A DNA stretch of 58,106 bases, taken from a virus (taxonomy: Duplodnaviria > Caudoviricetes). Each line of letters starts with the position of its first letter. Position 1 is the first letter of the stretch. Below are positions 18,840-43,821 of this stretch, piece by piece. Made by a program: the position numbers and the translations under genes. The DNA lies in IMG/VR virus record IMGVR_UViG_3300035180_000411, positions 1 to 58,106 of that record; one strand, 5' to 3'. The notes under the pieces were generated by a model. It worked only from the letters and a program-made list of their open reading frames with translations. It was not told where the DNA came from and ran no database searches.

Positions 18840-21800
18840 ATGGGTGACTGGACGGATGCGTACCTTAAGCCTGCGGCCACTAATGACGCGCCTGCCGGAG
18901 ACTGGACGGATGCGTATCTTAAGCCTGCGGCTACCAAGGTAGGTGCGTTATCCGACATCGCGCAGGCAGTTCCCGCTGAAGGTCGGCGCCTTGGAAGGTC
19001 AGTTCTAAATTTAGGCGCATCGCTGGGCGGCGCGCTCGGTCTGGTGAGCGACGATACCGCTGCGGGTATCGTTCACGACAACATGAAGGCTAATGAGGCG
19101 GACAACTACCAGGCGAGAACCACAGCAGGCAAGGTCGCTCAGGGGCTAACTCACATGGCCCCGGCTATTGCGCTGGGTATTGCCAACCCCATAGCGGGTC
19201 TAGGTGCTTTTGCCGCACAGGGTGCGTGGGATGCTGGAACCGGCGCCATCGACCAAGGTGACAGCTTGCGTAATGCCCAGATCAAGGCTGTCGGGCAAGG
19301 TGCGCTAAACTCAGCACTGGGTGAAGTCGTAGGTGGTAGCGGAAACGCGGTTCTGTCCAAGCTCCCATATGTCGGTAATGTATTTGCTCCGGCTGCAGCG
19401 GATACGGCTGGCGCGATAGGTAAGCGGATGGTTCAGGGCGCCGGGACTATGGCGGCTTTCAAACCCGCTGGTACAGCCATTGACTACGCGGCAGACATGG
19501 CTACTGGCGAGAATAACGGCCAGCAACGTGACTGGTTTCCTAATGTGGCTGACCTGGCTACAGGTGCCTTGATGGGCGTGCCGCACGCTGCGATGGAGTA
19601 CCGTGCCCGTAATAACGTACCTACCGGCGTGACACCGCTGGCGGACGGCTCATCGATCATGACGCATGAAAACGGTTCGCTGTTTTCATCCCCTACAGCG
19701 TCTGACGCATTTATCAAGGTTAACGGGCTGAGTGCCGCGGAGTCTGTCCCCGTCACCGAAAGGATGTTCGACCCCGAAGCCAAAACCGATAAGATAGTCG
19801 GCTACGGTGTACGGGTTGAAGCTACTCCAGCCATCCCCACGCCGGTGCCACCGGAAACCATCGTTCCACCAGAGTTGCAGCCGAAGGACTTGGTTGCTGG
19901 TACTGATACACAGAATCCCGAGCCGACGCCATCTGAGCCTATCGTTCCGCCGGAGGCGCGACCCGTGAGTGCTAACGTACCCGGCACCCCTGGGTTCGAC
20001 ATGGCTCGTTACATGGCCGACATAATACATGGTGAACGTACCCAAGCCCCCGCGCAGCCTGTAGTATCAGATATTCCGCCGGAGCTACAGCCGAAAGACT
20101 TGGTTGCGCCAAAGGTGTCCACAGCAGAGAAGACAGAACCCGCCACGGTTCAACCGGAATCACCCGCACCAGGCGAGGTCATCGCATCACCCGCAGCACA
20201 GCCGGTTGCTGCTGCGGAATCACCTGCGCCCGCTATCTCCCCGCTGTTCGAAGATATGGGCATCAAACCGAACAAGAAGAACGCTGACATCGTAGCCCGC
20301 GCCGATGCGCTACGGGCGAGTAACCCGGAGGTAGACCTTACCGACGTAGGCGTAGCATTGGCGAAGTACAAGTATGGTGCGGCGGAAAAAGCGTTGCGCG
20401 AACTGGAGGAACAAACCGCAGAGGAAGCACCTGTAGAAGCACCCGCAGAAGCACCCGCAGAAGCACCCGCAGAAGCACCCGCAGAAGCACCTGTAGAAGC
20501 ACCGGCAGAAGCACCTTCACCTAAAGACATGGTAGAACAACCTACAGTGAATCCGCCATCTGCGATCGACCAGGCTAGTCAAACCGGCGACCTTGACGCA
20601 TATACAGGAAGACAGGTGAAGGTAGGCAAAGAGCTGATCACTATTCCAAAACTTCCTCCAGTGCAGCAGAAAGTATTTAACTTACTCGACCGGGCTAGTC
20701 AAACCGGCGACCTTGACGCATATATGGGAAGCTACGAGAAGGTAGGCAAAGAACTGAACTTGGCTCGTGGTTCTGTCCTAAAGGCCATGCAAGGAATGCG
20801 GAAGGCTATCAGCAAGGCGTCGGGTATGGATGTCCCGCAATATCTGGATACGCTTAATAAAGCCAATCGTAGCGTTGAGAAGACCGATGAGGAGCTCTTC
20901 GGACAAAGCCCGGATAAGCAGCGCTCGGTCGTAGATACATCAGAACTGTATGGTGGCTCTGACGCTGGTCATGACGATAAATCCATAGGTATCATTAACA
21001 GCGCAGGTGGTTCGCGGGGCAAGACGAGTGGCTCCTTGGATATGAAAGCGGCGCAACAAGTACGCCGTGCCGTAGAAGCCTACCCGCCGGAAGCACGTGA
21101 AGCGCTGCAGAATAGACTGTCTGATCTGGGCGAAGACTATAAAGATTTTAGCAATGAGGAACGCCTGCATTTGCTGGGGGCTTCGAGTGACCACGACATT
21201 ACGCATGATGACATAGATGAAGCACGCCACCTTAGTCGGGGCACGCGCGGGGAAGACACAGACGATGGTACGTACCAATCCGCGACCGAAGCCGCTGCGG
21301 AAGACCAGGCAACGTTGAAACGAGAAGCCGCTGCGAAGGCTGAACACGCGGAAATGCTACGTGAAGTAGCTGATGACTATAATGAGAGCCTGCAGGAAGG
21401 GGATGTTCCATTCGAGCAACTACCACGGCGCCTGCAAGACCTTTACATTGATGCATTTGAGGATCACCGTAACGGCGACCTCACTGCGCAGGAGTTCATG
21501 CGCAAGTTTTCGGAGATAGCAGATGAAGCCAAATACCAAGCAACTGTTGAAAGAGGAAGCCTGGGCCAAGTTCAAGCAGGAGTTCCAGACAGCGGTACGG
21601 AAAATGGGCAAAAACAGCCAACCGGCGTCGCCGAACAGCCTGCCGCCGGGCGAGGAAGTGAAACAAAATACGCCGGCGAGGCGGTAGCCCCCACCGGCCA
21701 GCGTGCCGCTGAGATGGAGAGTAACCTGCGCAGCGCGTTCTCCAGCCCGTATTTCTTCGACCGCGCAGTGGGTATCGCGCAGGATGTGTCGAGCTTGCCG

Positions 21801-24800
21801 GAAGGTGCGCGTCGGGACGTAATGAAAGCCCAGTCGTCCGGCGGCAAAGTGAAAGGATTCTATGACCCCAAGACCAACAAAGTTTGGCTGATCGCCGATA
21901 ATATACCGAAGGGCGCTGAACTGTCCACGTTACTGCACGAAGTCGGCGTGCATATGGGTATGAAGAATTTACTCGGCGATAGAAACTACGCCCGTCTGGT
22001 GGAGCAGGTTAAGCAGTTTGCAGAGCGAGACGACGGGGGCTTGGAATCAGAACTGGCAAAAACTGCCTTGCGCCGGGTTCTGGCTGCGGAAAAATACCTG
22101 GGCAAAGAATATGGGGACAAAAGTTTCGACAGCGAACTGCTGGCGTACTTTACGGAAGAAGCCGTGCGTAGAGGGATCAACCCTACGGCGCTGGATAATT
22201 CTAGCGAGATAGGCAAGTTCTTTGCGACAGTTATGCGCGCAATCAATACAGCGCTACTCAAGCTAGGGATTAAACCAGAAAGCCTTACCGCTAAAAACGT
22301 AGTTGACCTGGCCTACGGCGCAGCGCACAAGGAGTTGAACGCTCCCCGTGAATCTGCTGAACCCATCGAACGGCGCTTCTCCATCGCTGCCGATAAGGAA
22401 GACGATGAAATAATCAAGGCCAACATCGCCAAGGCGCCAGTGGGGCTGCGCAAGAATCTCAACGTCATCATGGATAACGTCAAGTACACGGGTAAATCGT
22501 CGCTACTTGCATCGGGGTTCCTGCATGATGTCGTCCGGGTCGCCAAGAAGTCGCTGCCATCATCGGTAGAGTATTTCAAGAATGTGGAAGAGGGGGCTGC
22601 AACCAAGACTGCCGGAGACAAGGTGATCAACCAGGTTGCGCAAATGTATAACAGGTTGAAAATCCGCGACCGCGAAGTCGTCAATAATTTCCTTAAGGAA
22701 GGGACAATCTCTCAGAAATGGGGCTACCAACCGAGCTGGAAAACGGAGAATGTAGTAGACCGTGCGGCAAAGCGCGAATTTGATGCACTTCCACCCGAAG
22801 CCCAAGCCGTTGTCCAAGTGGTATTTCAACACGGGCACGATACCCTAACGGCGCTACGTGAAAGGTTTAATCAGGAAATACACTCGCAGGCATCGGGCGC
22901 TATAGAAGAAATAGAGCGTGCCGGCGGCGAAGATACAGACGCGCGTATACAGGAGGTAATTAAAGCTCGGGATGCAGCGCTTGAAAAAGTCGCTAAAGAT
23001 TTTCCAGAGCTAGCTGGCCCCTATGCCCCCCTTATGCGCTTCGGCGATTTTATGGTGGTAGCTACCTCAAAAGAATACCGCGAAGCCAGGGACGGCTCCC
23101 CTGAAAAAGAAGCCATGAAATCTGACCCGAATCATCGCCAAGTAATAGGGGCAGACAGCATCGGCGAAGCAAACCAGCTCGCAAAGGAAGTGCAGGAGGC
23201 GTATCCGCACATGCGCGCCGAAGCCTTCGAAAAGGAATACTACGCCAAGGCGCTACAAGAAGCTCCGTTCGCCACCATTGAGCGTATGAAGGAAATGGCC
23301 AAGGGGAATCTGGGGGATGACGCCAGCCCTGAGACGGTTAAGGCTATAGACGACTCGCTTACTCAGCTATATATCTCGTCACTGGCGGACACCAGTGCCA
23401 TGCACTCACGCACAAGGCGTACAAATACTGCTGGCGCAAGTGACGATATGATGCGGGCGTTTATCAGCAGGGGCCACTCCAATGCTCACCTGCTGGCTCT
23501 GCTGGATCATAACGCTGAAATTCAGCGGGCCATCACCAAGATGCGCAATGAGGCACACTCTGGAGTGGACTCTGAGGGAAACCAACTGCCCGGCACTAAG
23601 AGCGAGCGCAGACAGTACCTGAACGAGTTGCTAAAGCGGCGCGCGCTATCGTCGATATATTCAGCTAGTCCGTGGACCCACAAGTTTATGCAGCTTACCG
23701 CAACGTGGAAGGTACTAACTTCCCCAGCGTTTTACTTGCAGACTTCCACTGAACCGTTCATGGTAATGCGTCCGGTACTCGCTGGTAAGTTTGGCAATGC
23801 TAAATCGTTCACGACGATGCTTAAAGCATTCAAGGATGCTGCTGCGTTTGTTGCATCGCACCGCCCGGATGAGGCGGTAGATGTTTCCCGCTGGACCAAG
23901 TCCTCGGGCCGCGGCGCACGTAATGGGGATATGCTAAAGGCGCTGGACCGTAGGGGGCGCATCGACCTTGGCCAATTGTCTGATTTTGGCAATACCGACA
24001 TTACACACGGAAACCCTGTAAGCGCTGCGTTCAACCTTGTGATGTCCAAAATCAATCGCGTCGCTACCTCGATGGAAGCGTCTAACCGTATTACATCGGC
24101 GAACGCAGCATATACATTGGCTTATGAGCATGCATTAGACAACCTCAAAATGGCGCCAAAGGCTGCGCACGACTACGCAGTCGATTACGCGGACCAGACC
24201 GTACTCGACACGCATGGTAGCTACGACGCCTTTAACGCCCCGCGAATCATGATGCAGGCGAACTCCCCCGGACTCCCTGTAGCGCTGCTTGCGCAATTCC
24301 GCAAGTTTCAAGTGATGGAAATGTCGCTGTTCTCGCGGTTGGCGTATAACTCATTTAAGCACGCAGACCCGGCTGAGAAACTTATCGCTCGGAAGTCCTT
24401 GGCATATATGCTCGGCCAGCAAGCGGTGATAACGGGCGCTCTTGGGCTACCAGGCTATGGGGTAATTTCGACGTTGCTAAACTATATTTTCGGGGACGAA
24501 AAAACTCCAGTAGACGCCGACCTCGCTCTGCGCCGGGCAATAGGCGACAAGGACTTGGCTCACCTGATTATGAATGGAGTGCCTGGACTGCTCGGTATGC
24601 CTGTCACTACCAAGTTGGGCATGGGCGGAATGTTCAGTGTAGTACCTTTCGATAGTGTCGATCTCAAGAATAAAGCAGGATTGGGGGAGACTGTGCTGGC
24701 GATGAGCGGCCCCTTTTTAGGGGGGATGTTGCCGGATGGCGTGAACGCGGTAAACAAACTGCGTCAGGGAGAGTATTACAAAGCTACCGAGATGCTGATG

Positions 24801-25253
24801 CCCTCGTTAGTACGTAACGGCATGAAGTCCTATCGTCAGGCGACGGAAGGCGTAACCAATTCTAAGGGTGATATCCTTTTACGGCCAGACGAACTTTCGG
24901 AAGCGGATACTATGCTGCAGGCGCTTGGATTCAGTTCCACGCACCTTAACGACCGAACATTTACCCAGAACGTCGTCATGGAGTACGAGGAATATTACAA
25001 AGACCGCATGGACCGCGTTACACATAAGTACGCCAAGGCATTCAGAGAGGGGGACACTGAGGGTATGCGGGACGCACGGGATCAGTTTATGGAGTACCAG
25101 AAGGCCCAACGTGAAGCCGGGTTACTGCCTACACCAATTAGCTCAATGTACAGAGCACCTTCGGAACAGATCAAGCGTCAAGCAAAGACCATTGGCGGTG
25201 TACAGTGGGACAAGCACAATCTCAGAGTAGTGAAGGAACTGTCAGGGGAATAG
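18840..25253 (+). CDS. Giant internal virion / polyvalent protein (zincin-like HExxH and PLxRFG motifs)
   Basis: 2137 aa; GFYDP..VWLIADNI...LLHEVGVH...ELLAY metallopeptidase pattern; YAPLMRFGDF; low-complexity linkers. Confidence 0.75.
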   Translation: MGDWTDAYLKPAATNDAPAGDWTDAYLKPAATKVGALSDIAQAVPAEGRRLGRSVLNLGASLGGALGLVSDDTAAGIVHDNMKANEADNYQARTTAGKVAQGLTHMAPAIALGIANPIAGLGAFAAQGAWDAGTGAIDQGDSLRNAQIKAVGQGALNSALGEVVGGSGNAVLSKLPYVGNVFAPAAADTAGAIGKRMVQGAGTMAAFKPAGTAIDYAADMATGENNGQQRDWFPNVADLATGALMGVPHAAMEYRARNNVPTGVTPLADGSSIMTHENGSLFSSPTASDAFIKVNGLSAAESVPVTERMFDPEAKTDKIVGYGVRVEATPAIPTPVPPETIVPPELQPKDLVAGTDTQNPEPTPSEPIVPPEARPVSANVPGTPGFDMARYMADIIHGERTQAPAQPVVSDIPPELQPKDLVAPKVSTAEKTEPATVQPESPAPGEVIASPAAQPVAAAESPAPAISPLFEDMGIKPNKKNADIVARADALRASNPEVDLTDVGVALAKYKYGAAEKALRELEEQTAEEAPVEAPAEAPAEAPAEAPAEAPVEAPAEAPSPKDMVEQPTVNPPSAIDQASQTGDLDAYTGRQVKVGKELITIPKLPPVQQKVFNLLDRASQTGDLDAYMGSYEKVGKELNLARGSVLKAMQGMRKAISKASGMDVPQYLDTLNKANRSVEKTDEELFGQSPDKQRSVVDTSELYGGSDAGHDDKSIGIINSAGGSRGKTSGSLDMKAAQQVRRAVEAYPPEAREALQNRLSDLGEDYKDFSNEERLHLLGASSDHDITHDDIDEARHLSRGTRGEDTDDGTYQSATEAAAEDQATLKREAAAKAEHAEMLREVADDYNESLQEGDVPFEQLPRRLQDLYIDAFEDHRNGDLTAQEFMRKFSEIADEAKYQATVERGSLGQVQAGVPDSGTENGQKQPTGVAEQPAAGRGSETKYAGEAVAPTGQRAAEMESNLRSAFSSPYFFDRAVGIAQDVSSLPEGARRDVMKAQSSGGKVKGFYDPKTNKVWLIADNIPKGAELSTLLHEVGVHMGMKNLLGDRNYARLVEQVKQFAERDDGGLESELAKTALRRVLAAEKYLGKEYGDKSFDSELLAYFTEEAVRRGINPTALDNSSEIGKFFATVMRAINTALLKLGIKPESLTAKNVVDLAYGAAHKELNAPRESAEPIERRFSIAADKEDDEIIKANIAKAPVGLRKNLNVIMDNVKYTGKSSLLASGFLHDVVRVAKKSLPSSVEYFKNVEEGAATKTAGDKVINQVAQMYNRLKIRDREVVNNFLKEGTISQKWGYQPSWKTENVVDRAAKREFDALPPEAQAVVQVVFQHGHDTLTALRERFNQEIHSQASGAIEEIERAGGEDTDARIQEVIKARDAALEKVAKDFPELAGPYAPLMRFGDFMVVATSKEYREARDGSPEKEAMKSDPNHRQVIGADSIGEANQLAKEVQEAYPHMRAEAFEKEYYAKALQEAPFATIERMKEMAKGNLGDDASPETVKAIDDSLTQLYISSLADTSAMHSRTRRTNTAGASDDMMRAFISRGHSNAHLLALLDHNAEIQRAITKMRNEAHSGVDSEGNQLPGTKSERRQYLNELLKRRALSSIYSASPWTHKFMQLTATWKVLTSPAFYLQTSTEPFMVMRPVLAGKFGNAKSFTTMLKAFKDAAAFVASHRPDEAVDVSRWTKSSGRGARNGDMLKALDRRGRIDLGQLSDFGNTDITHGNPVSAAFNLVMSKINRVATSMEASNRITSANAAYTLAYEHALDNLKMAPKAAHDYAVDYADQTVLDTHGSYDAFNAPRIMMQANSPGLPVALLAQFRKFQVMEMSLFSRLAYNSFKHADPAEKLIARKSLAYMLGQQAVITGALGLPGYGVISTLLNYIFGDEKTPVDADLALRRAIGDKDLAHLIMNGVPGLLGMPVTTKLGMGGMFSVVPFDSVDLKNKAGLGETVLAMSGPFLGGMLPDGVNAVNKLRQGEYYKATEMLMPSLVRNGMKSYRQATEGVTNSKGDILLRPDELSEADTMLQALGFSSTHLNDRTFTQNVVMEYEEYYKDRMDRVTHKYAKAFREGDTEGMRDARDQFMEYQKAQREAGLLPTPISSMYRAPSEQIKRQAKTIGGVQWDKHNLRVVKELSGE
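20423..20516 (+). repeat. 12-nt tandem repeat encoding EAP(A/V)
   Basis: gaagcaccYgYa repeated about 8 times. Confidence 0.85.
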
Positions 25254-32371: not shown

Positions 32372-34036
32372 TCACCTATAAGTTCCATTTTGACCCTTCC
32401 AAAATGTGCAATTAGCTTTACCCACCGGGCACCAGCCACAAAGCCCCGACGGCTTGACCTCCCATTTATCGTTCTCGTATGCAATCTCCAGCCGTCTAAC
32501 GCGCGGTAAGAAACCCTGCCAGATGTTACTTACATCTGCCCGCGTAAACTTTTCCTTCGTGATTTTGTTATGCGCCAGCCAGACAAAAGCAGTGCTCACT
32601 TTATCAATTTTCGGCTCGGTGTGAAACACGAATGCAGCGAATAATTTGAGTTGGTCTGAGTCCGCCTTGGGGCGACCCGTATTGTGCGTTGGAATCATAC
32701 GCTCAGTACACAAGAATGTGTGGTCTTTCGAGTCTACTGAGATGCACTGAGTTGGCACCGACGGGATTTCCGCTACTGACACCACGCGCCTGCGCCATGA
32801 CTCTCCTCGGCCCCACTGCGTCGAAACTCTGTCGGCTTTGCGCGGGAGCAGGAAGGGGTTTATTCCGTTTGGTCTAAATGAAATGGGGTACGCAGTAACT
32901 TCCAGACCGAACCCGTGAGCGAGAACTGAGCTTTGCAGCGGACGCTGCCCCAGCGAGCAGAGTAGCTCCATGACAGAATCAGAAAGACCTTTATCCGTCG
33001 TTGTAAATATAGCCTGTTTCCGTACTGAATTTACATTCCCGTCGCCGTCCATAAGCCCTCTCAGCAGGTCAAGTCGCTGCGCATACCCCGCCCTAAGATA
33101 CACTGCGGGTATGTGTTTGTTTTTAAGGAGCCCTGTTTCTCGGAGCAGGGTACGCAAACCCAAAACAGTGTGCACCCTACACTTACCACCTTGCGCCTTG
33201 GCGCTGTAGTCGTGGCTTATATTGAAGCCGCGTCGTTTAATCTCCTCCCACACAAACTCATCGGGTTTAGTAATTTCGGCGCTTGAGTGTTTTCCGTCAG
33301 CCAACCACACACCTAGCACGTAGGGGTCTATAGGTAAAACAGCGTCCGAAAGGCTGAGTGGAGCGGCAACAAGTAATTGTGAGCTATTAACAGGCCCTGT
33401 TCCAATTACGTACCTATTGCCTTGGGTGTCTAGCTCCTTTACGTTAACCACACTTCCGTCGTGGAGCTTCCATAAGTGGTTTTCGTCACAGACCACCGAT
33501 GAGGTGTCGTCAAATGTAATTTTGTAACACTTTATGTTCTTTACTTGTGACTTACCTACTACAGTACACATCTCACCCGATTCTGAAAATAGTGTGTCGC
33601 CAACCCTTACATCTCCCATAGTAGTAAAGCCTTCAGGTGTCGGGAGCTTAGTATCCAGCGCAAGACCTTTCCAGTCTATGAGTACCGCGCGGTCTCCCAA
33701 TAATACACCAGCGTCTACAATACCGCGAACCCATGCATCCGGCGACCGCCACTCAGTCGGCCTGAAATCTGCAGTTAGTGCGTACTGGCGCTCAGTAAAT
33801 ACCTCTCCGCCGTATGACTGGATGCGGTCGCACAGTGGCTGCCACTTCTGCATGGATTCCGGGACTGGCGTTCCGTCCTTGACGCGGTTCTCTAGGGCGG
33901 TATGCACCTCCGTCCCCCACTTGGTAGCCTCGGTGCCGGGTTCCGCGACTTGCTTGGACACCCTTGTGAGGTAGTATCTACGGGGGCAGTTTTCAAAAGC
34001 GGTGAGCGACGAGTAAGACCACGGCGGGATGTTCAA
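32372..34036 (-). CDS. Cas4-like PD-(D/E)XK exonuclease containing an intein
   Basis: WSYSSL..FExCP, GxxVH, RGIVD, IDWK|TG, QLKLFA, LCGWCP; 329-aa insert between K123 and T. Confidence 0.9.
   Translation of the reverse strand: MNIPPWSYSSLTAFENCPRRYYLTRVSKQVAEPGTEATKWGTEVHTALENRVKDGTPVPESMQKWQPLCDRIQSYGGEVFTERQYALTADFRPTEWRSPDAWVRGIVDAGVLLGDRAVLIDWKGLALDTKLPTPEGFTTMGDVRVGDTLFSESGEMCTVVGKSQVKNIKCYKITFDDTSSVVCDENHLWKLHDGSVVNVKELDTQGNRYVIGTGPVNSSQLLVAAPLSLSDAVLPIDPYVLGVWLADGKHSSAEITKPDEFVWEEIKRRGFNISHDYSAKAQGGKCRVHTVLGLRTLLRETGLLKNKHIPAVYLRAGYAQRLDLLRGLMDGDGNVNSVRKQAIFTTTDKGLSDSVMELLCSLGQRPLQSSVLAHGFGLEVTAYPISFRPNGINPFLLPRKADRVSTQWGRGESWRRRVVSVAEIPSVPTQCISVDSKDHTFLCTERMIPTHNTGRPKADSDQLKLFAAFVFHTEPKIDKVSTAFVWLAHNKITKEKFTRADVSNIWQGFLPRVRRLEIAYENDKWEVKPSGLCGWCPVGKANCTFWKGQNGTYR
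32681..33667 (-). mobile_element. Intein (class-3 signature) with LAGLIDADG homing endonuclease
   Basis: Starts GLALDTKLPTPEGFTTMGDV, block B CDENHLW, block F TQCISVD, ends IPTHN/T; endonuclease motifs PYVLGVWLADG and LLRGLMDGDG. Confidence 0.92.
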
Positions 34037-36938: not shown

Positions 36939-37376
36939 TCAGTAAAAATCAACTTCAACGCCGCTTTCATTAAACATGGTGGCGGCTACTTCGAAACTGT
37001 CGGCCCACCGACCGTCTATCTCGGGTAAAGGGGCGATAACTTTAGTAATTCCTGCCTGGATGATTAGTTTAGCGCATTCCGCGCATGGATGGAGCGCACT
37101 GACAATAAGTGTCCCACCTGCAACGGATATTCCTGAGCGTGCGGCAGTTGCTATCGCATTGGCTTCAGCGTGAATGACATACTTCAGCTTTGTAGCTCTG
37201 TCGTTCAGTCTTGCATCGGTATCCTCCACCCCAACGGGGAATCCATTATACCCGATGCTCAAGATACGATTCGCTTCGTTGACAATACAGCACCCGACCC
37301 TGGTACTTGGGTCTTTTGACCATGACCCTACCAAATGTGCCAAGTCCACAAATTTTGATTGCCACGATGGTTTCAT
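36939..37376 (-). CDS. dCMP deaminase
   Basis: SKDPSTRVG, GYNG, HAEANA and PCAECAK zinc motifs. Confidence 0.92.
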   Translation of the reverse strand: MKPSWQSKFVDLAHLVGSWSKDPSTRVGCCIVNEANRILSIGYNGFPVGVEDTDARLNDRATKLKYVIHAEANAIATAARSGISVAGGTLIVSALHPCAECAKLIIQAGITKVIAPLPEIDGRWADSFEVAATMFNESGVEVDFY

Positions 37377-39177: not shown

Positions 39178-39561
39178 TCATACTTCCACCGTGATGCAGA
39201 TAGAATCTAGTTCAATTGTCACTAAGTGTTCTGTAACAGCTATGCGCGCCTTAGACTTGGCTTGGTGAGATTCCACCTGTACCTGTGCCTGTGGTCGTAC
39301 TTTTACATGTGGTGTTTTAGCACCCTTCGCTACCTCGTATGCAAATTTCACTTGCGATCCTGGTACGACACAAGGGACCCGTGTCAACTGTCCAGATCGC
39401 CACAAGTCAGACAGTACCTGACTAAGTTTCCCACGGTCTGGGCACACCTCTTGCATCTCAGGAACATCGAACAGATCGAGTACGTTAGTCGGGGTGTCGA
39501 GTGTTTCCAGGATTGAGATAACGCGGTTTTGAATGAGCGCAATTTGTGTAATTTGGTTCAT
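39178..39561 (-). CDS. Probable winged-helix protein
   Basis: LSQVLSDLWRSGQLTRV...FAYE. Confidence 0.55.
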   Translation of the reverse strand: MNQITQIALIQNRVISILETLDTPTNVLDLFDVPEMQEVCPDRGKLSQVLSDLWRSGQLTRVPCVVPGSQVKFAYEVAKGAKTPHVKVRPQAQVQVESHQAKSKARIAVTEHLVTIELDSICITVEV

Positions 39562-39569
39562 GGTAACTC

Positions 39570-39806
39570 CTAGCTAAATAATTGATACGCGGGGTCGGAC
39601 GAGAGGAAGTCTATATTTTCAAGGAGCGTACTCCATCGTCTTTGTCCGTTTTCCCAATTTACATCGACCAAGTTATAGTCTGGTGCGTCGGCAACAACGC
39701 CTATATCCCCTGTATCATAACTAGGATTGTTAGGGTTTGGGGAACGCTTTATAGCGATTACTCTAGCCCCTACAAGAAGGCGCGGGTCGTTTTGGTCTAT
39801 CGGCAT
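39570..39806 (-). CDS. Small SH3/KOW-like protein ending ...DPAYQLFS
   Basis: VGARVIA...GDIGVV...VDVNWENG beta-barrel pattern. Confidence 0.6.
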   Translation of the reverse strand: MPIDQNDPRLLVGARVIAIKRSPNPNNPSYDTGDIGVVADAPDYNLVDVNWENGQRRWSTLLENIDFLSSDPAYQLFS

Positions 39807-39815
39807 GATGATCTC

Positions 39816-40151
39816 CTATACAAACAATGGATCGACGGGCGCTTCTTGACGTTTGCCTACCTCAATCCCTTCGGTGACTAGGCGACCGTCGCCTAAGTAC
39901 CACGTGAAGTTCCGTTGATAAATGCGGGCATCGGTGTAGCTGTTAATTCGGTCCTTCGTGGTGCGTGAGTACCAGTTGCCGGGGTACAGAGTGATACGCC
40001 CGTCGGGATAGAATCTAATAATGTCAGTACGATACAACTGGATCGCCAGGTAATCACCCCTGTCAAAAATACGGGTATTGTTTTCTAGCGGTTTACCGTT
40101 AGCGCGGTTACGCGCCGTGTCGAGTAAGTTTCTTGCCTGAGAGTAATTCAT
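39816..40151 (-). CDS. Hypothetical phage protein ending ...APVDPLFV
   Basis: GxxSRTTKDRIN...IYQRNFTWY pattern; AGGAGG SD. Confidence 0.65.
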   Translation of the reverse strand: MNYSQARNLLDTARNRANGKPLENNTRIFDRGDYLAIQLYRTDIIRFYPDGRITLYPGNWYSRTTKDRINSYTDARIYQRNFTWYLGDGRLVTEGIEVGKRQEAPVDPLFV

Positions 40152-40160
40152 TACATCCTC

Positions 40161-40424
40161 CTAGGAAAAGAGCAAGTACGAAGGGTTCGCATGCACACGT
40201 TCGAAGCGAGTTTCGCTAAAAGCTACGCCGATTATCTGAGCGCCCGCTTCAAGGGTACTGTATTTTGTTGGTGTTATTAGCTCTATGTCGATACGCGGAC
40301 GTGCTCCACTGAGCATATATTTTTTCAACACTTTGAATATGACCCCGTAGAACCCAGGAGAAGTTTCGTCGCTTTTCGTGAACCGGAGGGTGTCTCCCTC
40401 TTGGATATCGTCAAACTTAAGCAT
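40161..40424 (-). CDS. Small beta-barrel-like protein ending ...NPSYLLFS
   Basis: DDIQEGDTLRFT; similar to 43506-43778; GGAGG SD. Confidence 0.6.
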   Translation of the reverse strand: MLKFDDIQEGDTLRFTKSDETSPGFYGVIFKVLKKYMLSGARPRIDIELITPTKYSTLEAGAQIIGVAFSETRFERVHANPSYLLFS

Positions 40425-40425
40425 G

Positions 40426-40680
40426 TCACACCTCCAGCGTAAGCGGAACTACATACCAGAGCGAGTCATCGAGCGCTGCACGACCCCAATCTTTTGCTTC
40501 TTTTTTATTGGTGAACGGGCCGTAGATTACAGCAGGTGTGTCACCTGCTACGATGCAGTATTGTCGATCAAGACGTTCACCGTTGACGCCAAACCCTGAT
40601 ACTTCCATGAACCGTGACAACTTCGACTCGATGCGAATGAGCCTGCTATGCACTTCTTCAATGTCTTTATTTGTTAGCAT
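40426..40680 (-). CDS. Hypothetical protein
   Basis: Short coiled coil plus YGPFT..EA..W pattern. Confidence 0.55.
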   Translation of the reverse strand: MLTNKDIEEVHSRLIRIESKLSRFMEVSGFGVNGERLDRQYCIVAGDTPAVIYGPFTNKKEAKDWGRAALDDSLWYVVPLTLEV

Positions 40681-41650
40681 TTTTTAACCCCTTCTTCGGA
40701 TGGAAGTGCGCATGTATTACAGCGGCCACTTCGTCGCCGTCCCACATACAGGCGCTTTCGAGCTGCGACAAACTCATGTTGCGCAAACGCTCTATGGTCA
40801 GCGGCTTGGTTTTCGTGCGCTTGGTGCCCCAGTCGTACCCTGTGTAAACAGGCGGGATATAAATTTCCTTCGGGTCACGTACTGAGGGTAAACTCTCCCA
40901 GTCAATCTTGACTACGGCGTCACGTAGCGCATGCAAGTGGGCTACATCCAGCCATTCGCTCGGCCCATGCTCGTTGTAGTATCCGCAGCTCAGGTTCGTA
41001 CATTCGGGAATAGTATCCCGGTAATTCGCCGTGTCGGTGAAGCTGCCCGTTGCTGCTGCATACGTCAGCCCCTGTTCCTTGAGTTGTGCTGACAGGGCCT
41101 TGACAAAGATATCTGAGCAGCATCTTCCGCCGCGCTGGAAGTCGATGATATCGCCTGTACCCTTGCGGTCGAATGCCACAGCGCGTTTGAACTGTCCCAG
41201 GAACTCGGTGTTGAACGACAGTGAACGACTACCAAGCCCCCCTATTTCTTCGCTGTGATGGAACACGTAGGTCCCCGGTACATTGGCGTCGATCATCTCA
41301 AGAAGCAGGTACATCCCCGCCCCATCGTCAGCCCCCAGGCAGTCGCGGTCGTAGGTTCCAAACACCGCCAGCCGATCGTGCGAATAAACTAGCGGCTTGA
41401 CCAGTGGTGCGTTGTCCAAGTGTATGCTCTCGAAGTTTTCGTCGTATACAAGGCGCTGAACTCCAGGCTTAGAATGCACCGTGTCGGTGTGGCATGAGAA
41501 CAGCGTAGTGGATTCCCCGACCTTAATCACTACGTTACCATTCATCAAGGTATGCGGATACTTGTCCGTGATTACTTCCTTGATAACAAATGCCTCTGAT
41601 GTTGACCCCGCCGGGCGCCGATGGCTCAAGATTTTAATAAGTCTGTCCAT
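40667..41650 (-). CDS. Zinc metallopeptidase, M28/M20 clan
   Basis: CHTDTVH, LGADDGAG, EEIG, FDRKG, TDTA and GYYNEH metal-ligand motifs. Confidence 0.85.
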   Translation of the reverse strand: MDRLIKILSHRRPAGSTSEAFVIKEVITDKYPHTLMNGNVVIKVGESTTLFSCHTDTVHSKPGVQRLVYDENFESIHLDNAPLVKPLVYSHDRLAVFGTYDRDCLGADDGAGMYLLLEMIDANVPGTYVFHHSEEIGGLGSRSLSFNTEFLGQFKRAVAFDRKGTGDIIDFQRGGRCCSDIFVKALSAQLKEQGLTYAAATGSFTDTANYRDTIPECTNLSCGYYNEHGPSEWLDVAHLHALRDAVVKIDWESLPSVRDPKEIYIPPVYTGYDWGTKRTKTKPLTIERLRNMSLSQLESACMWDGDEVAAVIHAHFHPKKGLKNANK

Positions 41651-41660
41651 GATGATTCCT

Positions 41661-41903
41661 CTAAGTAAACAGCGCGTCTGCAGGATTTCGGCGTGTGAGA
41701 TTTTTCAGCTCGTTTTTATCTACTATATAGTTGACACGGTTTCTAGTATCGAAATTTATTCGCAACGCTCCGGGATACTCAGTTTCGTCGCGGTGAAGGG
41801 ATGGCATGACTATCCCTTCATCTCCGTCCACATAGTCGCCGTATACACATCTCCGCTCGTCAAGGGAGACGCGCACCCTGTCGCCTACTCTAAATTCAGG
41901 CAT
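41661..41903 (-). CDS. Small SH3/KOW-like protein ending ...NPADALFT
   Basis: FRVGDRVRV...GDEGIV...INFD pattern; AAGGAG SD. Confidence 0.6.
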   Translation of the reverse strand: MPEFRVGDRVRVSLDERRCVYGDYVDGDEGIVMPSLHRDETEYPGALRINFDTRNRVNYIVDKNELKNLTRRNPADALFT

Positions 41904-41914
41904 GTCGGTCTCCT

Positions 41915-43492
41915 TTATTCGTTATCCAGCATGTTGCGAATATCCCAGACCGGATCGAACTTCGCACGCAGTGCTTCCGCTAACTTGCTGTTCGACAGAT
42001 TGAGTAGATAGTAAACAGTGGACCACGTATCAATACGTGTAGTACCCGCCCGGTGCTTGGATTTCACCACGTCCTGCAGAAACGCCATCAGTGTTTGCGT
42101 TTCCATCTTGGTCGGCACGCAGTGCGGATGGTACAGCGCCTTGGAATATGCGTCCCCGCCTACGCGCCAGGTATTGGTTCGGATTTCATCCGGCATTGCG
42201 AAGACCCGTACACCGTCTTTGATTCCGCAGCAGAACGCCCCGCCTGCGTTCCGGATAAATCCTTCCTTGTGGTGCGGCAGTGCGTTGTTTCTATGTGTCC
42301 ATACTCCACCCCGGAGTTGTACTAACCCGAGAGCTTCTTTATCTACAGTATTAAGGTATCGAACCCCGTCGATGACTATGGTGTTTTCTCGCCTGGCATA
42401 CATATCTATTGAGTCACTAATACGTGTCGCCGTGTAATGCGTGTCCCTACAGCTCGCGCAAACTTTTCCTCCTTCATGCACAGGTGTGAGCTTGCGTGGG
42501 CTAAACATATCTCCGCAGCAAACACAGGGTTCATGCCCAGCAGGGTTTTCGATATACACCCTACCTTCACGGGTAGCTGCAGCGCTATCCCCACTTTTCG
42601 CTATACGGATATAGTCACCGTCGATCTTCACCGTTTGCACAGGAGTATCGAGGTACGGCAGGATGTAGAAATCCGGTTTTCCCGGCGCCGGCAATTTCAG
42701 TAACCGAGCACCATCAAGCCCTAGCGCCTCACTTCCTCGGCTGTATTCATCTACGAAGCCCATTTCCCTGAGCCGGGCGGCGAGCATTGAATCTCCGTAC
42801 ACACGGGTGTACCTGGGGGGTGTTACTCCGATATGGCAGACAGTTCGGGCGTTGATTCGTCCATCCCGCCGTGTGTACGCCACGACAGTGTCCGGCCCTG
42901 CATACGCACGAACCGGGTGAACGCCTCCGGTGTTTACTTCCCAATACCGCATTTGATCCGCTCTACCGTCCATGCAGCTCTGCGGGCCGTTGCGGTATAC
43001 TTCTTCGATTTCGTCTTCGGTAGAGGCCCAGAGTACCAGACCCTCTTCGCACTTCTCGCGGTGCCGGTCTACCCACTGTTTGATTGCCTCGTTGTCGAGG
43101 TGCTCGGCGTAGTATTTCTGCAGGTACTTCCCTACCTTCATGCGGATTTGTACGTCCTGTCGCCCCTTTTCAGGGTTTGGCGTGTACGCGATCATACTGT
43201 TATCGTCGTCGCTTACGTGGACGAAATGGAGCGGGTCTACCCACGGCTCCGATGCGAATACTACCGGCGTGTAGGTGTGTATGAGTGTTTTCAGTTTGGC
43301 GTTGTCCGAACTACGAATGAGTTCACGCCAAATCCAGAAGTTTTCTTCGTTAGGCCCAGCGTTGCCTGCGAGTTCATAGTATTTAATTGTTTTCTCATAC
43401 GCAGGGCGTATACCGCAGGTTGTGGGGAATGTCCAGAAGCTGTCCAGCCATTCGTTGTATTGTTCAAGATTCGTTACTTTGTTTTTGCTCAT
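41915..43492 (-). CDS. 525-aa protein with SCM motif (PcfJ-like?) and Zn-ribbon
   Basis: MKVGKYL, YRNGPQSCM, ARTV, RVYG, PYLD, CxCC...CxxC. Confidence 0.6.
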   Translation of the reverse strand: MSKNKVTNLEQYNEWLDSFWTFPTTCGIRPAYEKTIKYYELAGNAGPNEENFWIWRELIRSSDNAKLKTLIHTYTPVVFASEPWVDPLHFVHVSDDDNSMIAYTPNPEKGRQDVQIRMKVGKYLQKYYAEHLDNEAIKQWVDRHREKCEEGLVLWASTEDEIEEVYRNGPQSCMDGRADQMRYWEVNTGGVHPVRAYAGPDTVVAYTRRDGRINARTVCHIGVTPPRYTRVYGDSMLAARLREMGFVDEYSRGSEALGLDGARLLKLPAPGKPDFYILPYLDTPVQTVKIDGDYIRIAKSGDSAAATREGRVYIENPAGHEPCVCCGDMFSPRKLTPVHEGGKVCASCRDTHYTATRISDSIDMYARRENTIVIDGVRYLNTVDKEALGLVQLRGGVWTHRNNALPHHKEGFIRNAGGAFCCGIKDGVRVFAMPDEIRTNTWRVGGDAYSKALYHPHCVPTKMETQTLMAFLQDVVKSKHRAGTTRIDTWSTVYYLLNLSNSKLAEALRAKFDPVWDIRNMLDNE

Positions 43493-43505
43493 TTTAGTTA
43501 AGCTC

Positions 43506-43778
43506 CTAACTAAATAATTGATCGGATGCGCTCTGTACGCGCGGGTATCGTTCGAAGTATTTTACGTTCATGGGGAGTTGCGCCCCTATTTTATTTCCTA
43601 AGCTATGGGTTCCATCGGCTTGCTCGATGAGTTCGATGAATTCGAACATGTAGTGTGTATTCGAATGTCCGCTACGGTGAGTAGCTCGGGCAACTAGCCC
43701 TACCCAGGAAGGGAAAGCCGGGTCTGTAAATACATATAGCTCGCCAGGGACGATATCATCTACTGTCAGTTTAGGCAT
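43506..43778 (-). CDS. Small beta-barrel-like protein ending ...SASDQLFS
   Basis: DDIVPGELYVFT; similar to 40161-40424; AGGAG SD. Confidence 0.6.
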   Translation of the reverse strand: MPKLTVDDIVPGELYVFTDPAFPSWVGLVARATHRSGHSNTHYMFEFIELIEQADGTHSLGNKIGAQLPMNVKYFERYPRVQSASDQLFS

Positions 43779-43792
43779 ACTGACTCCTAAAT

Positions 43793-43821
43793 AAAAGGCG
43801 GGGCGTTATGAGCGCCCCGCC
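43793..43821 (-). terminator. Intrinsic terminator-like hairpin
   Basis: 9-bp stem ggcggggcg/cgccccgcc, then TTTTATTT on the minus strand. Confidence 0.7.

Follow-up and report, generated by a model that had tools for sequence, protein, structure and literature searches.

A Leu-Phe C-terminal motif shared by small, fast-evolving proteins in one operon of an uncultivated tailed phage

Background

Why should five small bacteriophage proteins, with bodies of several different types, all end in the same two hydrophobic residues at a fixed distance from the C-terminus? The question is raised by a complete viral record with direct terminal repeats (IMG/VR record IMGVR_UViG_3300035180_000411; Duplodnaviria, Caudoviricetes), the whole 58,106 bp of which was analysed and is referred to here as the window. 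In an operon on its minus strand, between positions 39,570 and 43,778, five short genes encode proteins terminating in Leu-Phe and one further residue (LFx; the 'LF tail'), and are interspersed with genes for a putative peptidase and for proteins of 525 and 84 amino acids (aa). An initial annotation, made from the sequence alone, proposed that this tail was a portable tag recruiting variable domains to a common hub, or alternatively that it reflected the signals initiating translation of the next gene. In phage proteomes, short linear motifs seldom come to notice, as the small early proteins mostly lack homologues and known domains.

Results

A C-terminal motif confined to one operon

The five minus-strand open reading frames (ORFs) and their C-termini proved to lie where the initial annotation had placed them, and all five aligned tails have Leu at position -3 and Phe at position -2 (Table 1). 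Pro is present in four of the five, as had been noted, but at exactly -7 rather than at '-6 or -7'. The tail is a short linear peptide motif approximating to [D/N]-P-[A/S]-[D/Y]-x-L-F-x-COOH. The codons used are also as first described, with Leu at -3 encoded by TTA, TTG, CTC, CTG and TTA, Ser by AGC, TCC and AGT, and all five genes stopping with TAG. Among the 436 six-frame ORFs of at least 40 aa in the window, exactly these five, all in one operon, end in LFx; given how often Leu and Phe occur in this phage, the binomial probability of five or more such endings among the 76 putative genes is 1.3e-6. The nucleotide pattern YTNTTYNNNTAGGAG was observed four times, against 0.08 expected, and solely at LF gene junctions, the fifth of which reads TAGAGG.

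Two further candidate features were dropped. A common TTATTTAGGAG leader has one occurrence outside the tails, which is the T-run of a terminator beside a Shine-Dalgarno (SD) sequence, and the notion that Met-Pro N-termini shield these proteins from aminopeptidases was too weak, as MP begins seven of the 54 genes with ATG starts, three of them LF genes. Word searches of an open-access full-text library brought up no account of a shared LFx tail on small phage proteins, though this falls short of showing that none exists.

Selection on the amino acids of the tail

The same operon is found on six viral contigs (L002-L007), with peptidases that are 94-97% identical; L013-L018 are these same contigs, and L006, a duplicate of L005 across the region, was excluded from counts. 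Tail codons were counted in 30 gene copies, taken from the window, L002-L005 and L007. Summed within families, the codons at -3 and -2 exhibit at least seven synonymous variants and no amino acid changes, with Leu encoded by TTA, TTG, CTA, CTC, CTT or CTG and Phe by TTT or TTC. Over the same copies, five amino acid changes were observed at -1, where S, N, T, I, V and A occur, and 11 at positions -10 and -9. Leu-Phe is retained in all 46 sequences from the clade (families g43506, 9/9; g39570, 15/15; g41661, 11/11; g40161, 6/6; g39816, 5/5, named after the gene coordinates in Table 1). The suggestion that the differing codons pointed to selection on the peptide, and the expectation that homologues would keep Leu-Phe with synonymous variation, are both borne out by this pattern of solely synonymous change: the LF tail is kept by selection on amino acids.

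Synonymous divergence (dS) between the window and its relatives is similar across the genes of the operon, at approximately 0.2-0.55, whereas the ratio of nonsynonymous to synonymous divergence (dN/dS) is 0.18-0.95 for the LF-tail genes and 0.03-0.15 for the genes encoding the 84 aa protein (0.03-0.12), the peptidase (0.06-0.08) and the 525 aa protein (0.11-0.15). Individually, the ratios are 0.18-0.19 for the 111 aa LF protein, 0.19-0.38 for the 80 aa, 0.36-0.71 for the 87 aa, 0.38-0.60 for the 90 aa and 0.47-0.95 for the 78 aa proteins.

Unrelated bodies bearing the same tail

Pairwise BLASTP comparisons among the five LF proteins gave no E value below 0.1. When family profiles were compared with hhalign, the 90 aa and 87 aa families could be aligned collinearly across 75 columns (E 2.2e-4, probability 45%), and the 87 aa protein is probably a distant paralogue of the 90 aa protein on this evidence; the 80 aa and 78 aa families gave weak hints of similarity (E 0.01, probability 4%), nothing was found between the 90 aa and 80 aa families, and only the 11-residue tail aligned between the 87 aa and 78 aa families. 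The 111 aa protein is a member of the Kyano_Gp96 family (PF23790; E 6.3e-7, 29.9 bits, passing the gathering cut-off of 27) and also matches phrog_554 (E 8e-9). Together with the profile comparisons, this membership implies at least three types of body. The initial annotation was accordingly right in setting the 111 aa protein apart, its family having distant homologues that lack the tail, and in describing the tail as a portable add-on to unrelated bodies, since one pair of body families shares nothing else according to hhalign.

By contrast, only in part could its description of the other four bodies as SH3/KOW-type barrels be sustained, with moderate support for the 90 aa protein alone. The AlphaFold2 (AF2) model of that protein has five strands and a predicted local distance difference test score (pLDDT) of 76.7, falling below 50 over tail residues 82-87, and Foldseek returned weak matches to KOW/SH3-like barrels (best E 0.022, none reaching 0.001). 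The model of the 78 aa protein is unreliable (pLDDT 50), and the 87 aa protein is linked to such a fold through its hhalign kinship only. Within the 90 aa family, 30 of the 90 columns are invariant, the longest invariant run being the tail sequence SASDQLF.

Distribution and spread of the tail

The LF tail is both portable and limited to one clade, being present in 46/46 clade homologues and in 0/7 distant homologues of two of the bodies. Six Kyano_Gp96 relatives of 48-56% identity have other, longer C-termini (LF in 0/6), and the only credible distant relative of the 90 aa family, P0025, found through an exhaustive profile search in which the large repetitive proteins listed were spurious, has a different ending (0/1). 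No relatives below 68% identity were found for the 80 aa and 78 aa families, and none below 70% for the former; a metagenome scan returned no relative of the 80 aa family, and its matches in a scan of viral contigs were the same six contigs only.

Two LF genes have undergone tandem duplication in relatives of the window, that for the 90 aa protein being present in two copies in L004, L005 and L006 and that for the 78 aa protein in L005 and L006, with the breakpoints located exactly at the junction between tail and SD sequence. In contigs from four public DNA runs, gene-boundary joints recorded as 'goes back 240' and 'goes back 279' were seen in three and four runs respectively, although such joints, with short sides and 80% likeness, are not fully reliable. 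In addition, the tails of two families that are not homologous agree at 20 of 21 nucleotides. The tail has probably spread between genes by recombination at the tail/SD junction, which does not explain why it is kept.

No RNA run was listed as holding the sequence, and these four DNA runs, which derive from sediment and microbial mats, yielded fragmented contigs, with 13-25% of sampled words present. In the contigs of all four, the last codon of the 111 aa gene, at 39820, specifies Ala rather than the Val of the window, indicating that the ending ...PLFV of the window is a minority form of ...PLFA.

Table 1. Features of the LF-tail operon and its upstream boundary, all on the minus strand of the window
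Feature	Coordinates	Strand	C-terminal tail (codons)	Basis
LF-tail protein, 78 aa	39570..39806	-	DPAYQLFS (39573-39596)	ORF; 15/15 family members keep Q75, L76, F77
LF-tail protein, 111 aa, Kyano_Gp96 body	39816..40151	-	APVDPLFV (39819-39842)	PF23790
LF-tail protein, 87 aa	40161..40424	-	NPSYLLFS (40164-40187)	ORF
Protein without LF tail, 84 aa, clade-restricted; overlaps end of peptidase gene by 14 nt	40426..40680	-		ORF
Putative clan-MH-like (M28/M20-type) di-metal peptidase without LF tail, 327 aa	40667..41650	-		phrog_4191 'peptidase', E 3.3e-70
LF-tail protein, 80 aa	41661..41903	-	NPADALFT (41664-41687)	ORF; 11/11 family members keep L78, F79
Protein without LF tail, 525 aa, with S-C-M motif and Cys cluster	41915..43492	-		phrog_6980, E 9.5e-16
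LF-tail protein, 90 aa, putative small beta-barrel body	43506..43778	-	SASDQLFS (43509-43532)	ORF, AF2 model
Terminator-like hairpin, nine perfect G-C pairs, then T-run	43797..43821	-		consensus scan only

A conserved gene pair within the operon

The assignment of the 327 aa protein to the M28/M20-type zinc peptidases is consistent with its phrog_4191 match and with the invariance, across 27 sequences, of H54, D56, D108, E134, E135, D161 and H228, a set of putative metal ligands by the pattern of the clan; its Pfam scores, however, are below the gathering cut-offs (13.9 against 24.6 bits for M20 and 12.6 against 21.3 for M28; E 0.05-0.11). Around residues 80-100 it has an insertion of approximately 16-20 residues relative to a 47%-identical relative (L008), and no other part of this protein, elsewhere 94-97% conserved, varies as much. 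In the 525 aa family, C173 and M174 are invariant across 25 sequences, and S172 nearly so. The label 'PcfJ-like' given to this protein was not confirmed, as neither it nor nine relatives matched the Pfam PcfJ family (PF14284) at E values up to 1; the nearest named ESM Atlas cluster, in which 44% of members are annotated as PcfJ (score 0.83), is a weak lead only. Sequence searches of the PDB with the peptidase profile and the 525 aa protein found nothing significant, and word searches of the open-access library likewise brought up nothing on this module, which again falls short of showing that nothing exists. The 84 aa protein is 90-98% identical in five relatives.

Relatives of the peptidase at 31-49% identity were identified in 49 metagenome loci (L019-L067), and a homologue of the 525 aa protein is encoded directly upstream in 23 of the 31 such loci with at least 2 kb of upstream sequence. 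The two genes are likewise adjacent, without LF genes, in a Klebsiella Drulisvirus and in Rhizobium phage Pasto (L011, L012), in the latter of which they follow an ArdA-like anti-restriction gene. They form a conserved adjacent pair in many podophage-like contigs, and it is only in the clade of the window that a gene, that of the 80 aa LF protein, is inserted between them. LFx endings in the 49 distant loci are at background frequency (3/1248 same-strand ORFs, compared with 3/1495 on the opposite strand); no other recurrent C-terminal motif was found there, nor any homologue of the window's small genes, the 84 aa gene included, and the L008 locus also has no LF-tailed genes. As to whether the tail co-occurs with the peptidase and 525 aa genes, a check proposed in the initial annotation, the pair is widespread without it. 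Co-occurrence thus lends no support to the pair as a hub, while leaving it a candidate, and the absence of the LF genes from distant loci marks them as clade-specific accessory genes lodged around a conserved pair. A complex prediction for the peptidase and 525 aa protein with two Zn ions, with the 80 aa LF protein as partner (0.22, 0.05, mark 0.32), speaks neither for nor against an interaction.

Genomic context

No DNA relatives of the 4.2 kb region were found among 50,697 phage records using megablast and blastn. For the DNA polymerase and large terminase (TerL), identity to the proteins of Rhizobium phages RHph_TM and of Pseudomonas phage Rollin reaches only 32-38%. Rollin is among the nearest isolates (TerL 38.5%, DNA polymerase 31.6%); there are no recurrent LF endings in the 31 kb stretch of Rollin examined. 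Scanning genome contigs with the peptidase gave three distant relatives and no pointer to the host of the clade.

The minus-strand gene block extends from approximately 46.2 kb down to 25.3 kb, and encodes a family-A DNA polymerase, an SNF2 helicase, a DUF927 primase-helicase, a dCMP deaminase and many small proteins. The LF genes are clustered at its upstream, early end, ahead of the replication genes. The terminator-like hairpin lies between the gene for a 119 aa protein and that for the 90 aa LF protein, the first gene past it, which suggests that transcripts reach the LF operon by reading through the hairpin or start at a promoter that has escaped recognition. Genes for tRNA or tmRNA are absent from the window, and the idea of a phage tmRNA was dropped as a result.

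Two genes without the LF tail, those for the 84 aa protein and for a 127 aa protein (39178-39561), end in ...LTLEV and ...ITVEV. Their last codons, GAG GTG and GAA GTA respectively, form an SD-like GGAGGTG or GGAAGT or overlap the next start, which shows plainly how a C-terminus can be shaped by a ribosome-binding site downstream.

Elsewhere in the window, a 2137 aa protein of the structural block (18840-25253, plus strand) matches DarB-like anti-restriction families over its C-terminal third (phrog_10089, E 4e-39) and may be an injected anti-defence protein. A 554 aa protein (32372-34036, minus strand) combines an N-terminal PD-(D/E)XK nuclease domain with an ATPase region matching terminase and DnaC-like PHROGs and a LAGLIDADG_3 match just below the cut-off (E 1.7e-4); it may be a homing-endonuclease or intein remnant. 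The dCMP/cytidine deaminase among the early genes (36939-37376, minus strand; PF00383, E 1.5e-22) hints at modified nucleotide metabolism.

Discussion

A proposed constant handle on variable heads

A short docking motif that is read together with the carboxylate would fit several features of the tail: the strict conservation of two hydrophobic residues, their constant spacing from the C-terminal end, the freedom of the last residue to vary and a polar linker containing Pro. The LF tail may be a constant, flexible C-terminal handle on small early proteins with rapidly diversifying heads, its flexibility being suggested by the low pLDDT of the tail in the one good model, that of the 90 aa protein. 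The Leu and Phe side chains would insert into a hydrophobic pocket of a single conserved partner, with the variable last residue mainly supplying the carboxylate, such that every protein of the panel would be brought to one common receptor. At its most speculative, this receptor would be a ring-shaped host machine that recognises hydrophobic C-terminal tails, whether the beta sliding clamp or an unfoldase or protease of the AAA+ type, for example Lon, ClpXP or HslUV, the neighbouring phage peptidase and 525 aa protein seeming less likely for the part. The heads might then either bind variable host targets, as adaptors, or tune binding to a polymorphic host protein, as inhibitors. Among the single accounts considered, our tentative preference is for this model, in which an unvarying handle is carried by variable heads and its likeliest receptor is a ring machine of the host, and we put its probability at a little under one half.

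Several points count against it. No partner for the LF tail was found in the phage itself, where domains of the clamp, PDZ, TPR or protease-adaptor kinds are lacking from the 30 minus-strand early proteins scanned with Pfam. Strict conservation covers just two residues, which is a low information content. Every tail-bearing sequence comes from one narrow, uncultivated clade, with identities of 68-100% within families, and hence part of the conservation could reflect shared recent ancestry, though divergence in the bodies reaches 45% of residues. The DQLFS tails, which have nearly the same 21 nucleotides in different genes, point to spread by recombination, allowing for some hitch-hiking. Finally, the tail codons lean towards A/U, with TTT in 5/5 tails of the window, compared with 44% genome-wide, and TTA, the rarest Leu codon, in 2/5, and some nucleotide-level pressure from the ribosome-binding region of the next gene is likely.

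Alternative explanations

That last pressure might be all there is to explain, the peptide being a by-product of a U-rich stretch and AGGAG motif that serve initiation of the next gene, whose start lies within 8-13 nt of every LF stop. This alternative, raised in the initial annotation, does account for the TAG stops, which arise because the stop codon overlaps the AGGAG ribosome-binding site of the next gene (TAG+GAG), as it also does 3' of two non-LF genes, those for the DNA polymerase and a 91 aa protein; it may account for the mild over-use of TTT and TTA too, and the ends of the 84 aa and 127 aa genes show SD-like sequences being held within a coding region. Yet although the codon bias fits an A/U-rich ribosome-binding region, it cannot yield the pattern of synonymous change without replacement, in which all six Leu and both Phe codons are used, and the invariant Leu-Phe is left unexplained. 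The U-run is broken by TTC in six of the 30 copies, conservation reaches positions -8 and -7, at least 20 nt from the SD sequence, and Leu-Phe is kept by the g41661 family even though the stop in five of its six locus copies is TAA followed by AGGAA; moreover, there is a strong SD sequence at the junction of the 525 aa gene with neither LF nor a U-run. We regard this as the least probable of the explanations. Scarcely better is the prospect that the tail and intergenic junction are a cassette boundary, spread by recombination and inherited by genes as they enter or duplicate, with little function of its own. The duplication breakpoints at the tail/SD junction, the matching joints in the public runs, unreliable as these are, and the tail nucleotides common to two non-homologous families all agree with such a process, but hitch-hiking does not predict an absence of Leu and Phe replacements while neighbouring codons and bodies change, and the differing codons of the other three families offer little homology for recombination. 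As it explains spread and not retention, it is also compatible with the tail being a handle.

The principal rival places function in the tail itself, as a plain C-terminal degron through which a host AAA+ protease would rapidly remove these early proteins, so that they would act during the opening minutes of infection only, with no recruitment involved. An extreme C-terminal tail that is modelled with low confidence and is probably flexible would suit this role, as would an early operon upstream of the replication genes. Bacterial C-terminal degrons with Leu at -3 include those of ssrA (...LAA) and SulA (...LYH), and tail-specific proteolysis favours C-termini that are non-polar at -3 and -2 and small at -1, with which L-F-[S/T/A/V] agrees. 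However, many sequences suffice as degrons, and invariance of both residues in all 46 sequences, across five to seven paralogues per genome, exceeds this generic need, while the residue at -1 may also be N or I; we consider a degron unlikely, though it remains the foremost competitor. It is also possible, though very unlikely, that the metallopeptidase or 525 aa protein of the same operon acts on the tails or binds them, as substrates or docking sites, an exopeptidase trimming or holding the C-terminus to process or activate the protein. The genes are interleaved in a tightly coupled operon, with one LF gene exactly between the pair, all putative metal ligands of the peptidase are kept, and exopeptidases of its clan bind free termini; against this, the pair manages without LF-tailed genes in the 49 distant loci, which have no homologue of the small genes, as well as in L008, the Klebsiella phage and Pasto.

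Implications

The evolutionary evidence for a motif is clean, in that variation is purely synonymous, the bodies are unrelated, the heads evolve fast and genes have duplicated in tandem, and it marks these otherwise anonymous proteins as candidates for sharing one common receptor. Under the preferred reading of the tail as a handle, finding the receptor would provide a mechanism for five to seven genes per genome at once and, were it a host protease or clamp, would reveal a modular strategy of take-over or anti-defence. In a more specific form, which we judge decidedly unlikely, the LF proteins would be an exchangeable panel of adaptors whose heads seize host proteins, such as defence factors, while LFx-COOH plugs into a host AAA+ protease or ring machine, leading to destruction or disabling of the target, in what would be a bacterial-virus counterpart of degradation hijacking of the viral F-box or Vif type. 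The LF tail could also double as a small, portable experimental tag.

Comparison with known systems

Short C-terminal peptides that are read by a common partner are known from several systems. In the HbYX motif of proteasome activators, a hydrophobic residue, an aromatic residue and any last residue precede the free carboxylate, and the pocket reads the penultimate aromatic and the carboxylate while leaving the last side chain free. LF tails are alike in having a hydrophobic residue at -3, in this case an invariant Leu, any of S, N, T, I, V or A at -1, and a free C-terminus, but the residue at -2 is Phe in all 46 and never the Tyr of HbYX; 20S proteasomes, furthermore, are absent from most bacteria. 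The ssrA tag (...LAA), the C-terminus of SulA and the ClpX-binding tail of SspB are disordered C-terminal peptides with Leu at -3, read together with the carboxylate, and SspB has the design of a variable binding domain, a flexible linker and a constant tail. Relative to the ClpX C-motif of the ssrA kind, LF tails differ in having Phe without exception at -2 and a residue that is frequently polar (S or N) at -1, and relative to these AAA+ degrons and tethers in general, in ending with LFx, rather than LAA or LRVVK, and in being common to several unrelated phage proteins. The C-terminal tip of single-stranded DNA-binding protein (SSB), D-D-D-[IL]-P-F-COOH, was considered and rejected as a parallel, because LF tails always have a residue after Phe, no Pro at -3 and at most two acidic residues. 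A different likeness is offered by the internal proteins of phage T4, which are small and hypervariable, include some with anti-defence functions, and share an N-terminal capsid-targeting peptide that is cleaved by the prohead protease in a late, structural context. Both cases comprise hypervariable small phage proteins with a short common peptide and a phage protease nearby; the LF tag, however, is C-terminal, its genes are located in an early and replication block, and the peptidase belongs to an unrelated clan.

The closest parallels involve sliding clamps. The tail of the T4 polymerase also ends in Leu-Phe plus one small residue. According to one account, the T4 polymerase (gp43), sigma-like factor (gp55) and co-activator (gp33) each bind the sliding clamp through a hydrophobic C-terminal tail, and these tails are highly similar, freely interchangeable and joined through unstructured, divergent linkers (PMC2988020). 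On that description, unrelated phage proteins share a common C-terminal hydrophobic motif, as here, and in T4 use it to reach one ring-shaped hub. By contrast, none of the 30 minus-strand early proteins scanned in the window phage was recognisable as a clamp, the bearers of the LF tail are tiny proteins rather than polymerases or sigma-like factors, and their tails are not markedly acidic. Unrelated transposases have convergently gained C-terminal Q-L-x-L-F motifs for binding the beta clamp (PMC4549789). This motif, so described, is likewise short and usually C-terminal with a Leu-Phe core, which is the resemblance that the initial annotation had pointed out. Set against that consensus (PMC4549789), the Leu of position 4 and Phe of position 5 are present in 5/5 LF tails, whereas the Gln of position 1, the most conserved, and the Leu of position 2 are present in 0/5, position 1 being S, A, S, A and V and position 2 being D or Y; exactly one residue always follows Phe in LF tails, a constraint that the clamp motif lacks. 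With Gln 1 and Leu 2 missing, the LF tails are not classed as clamp-binding motifs. They are instead a variant, newly seen, of a principle that is already known.

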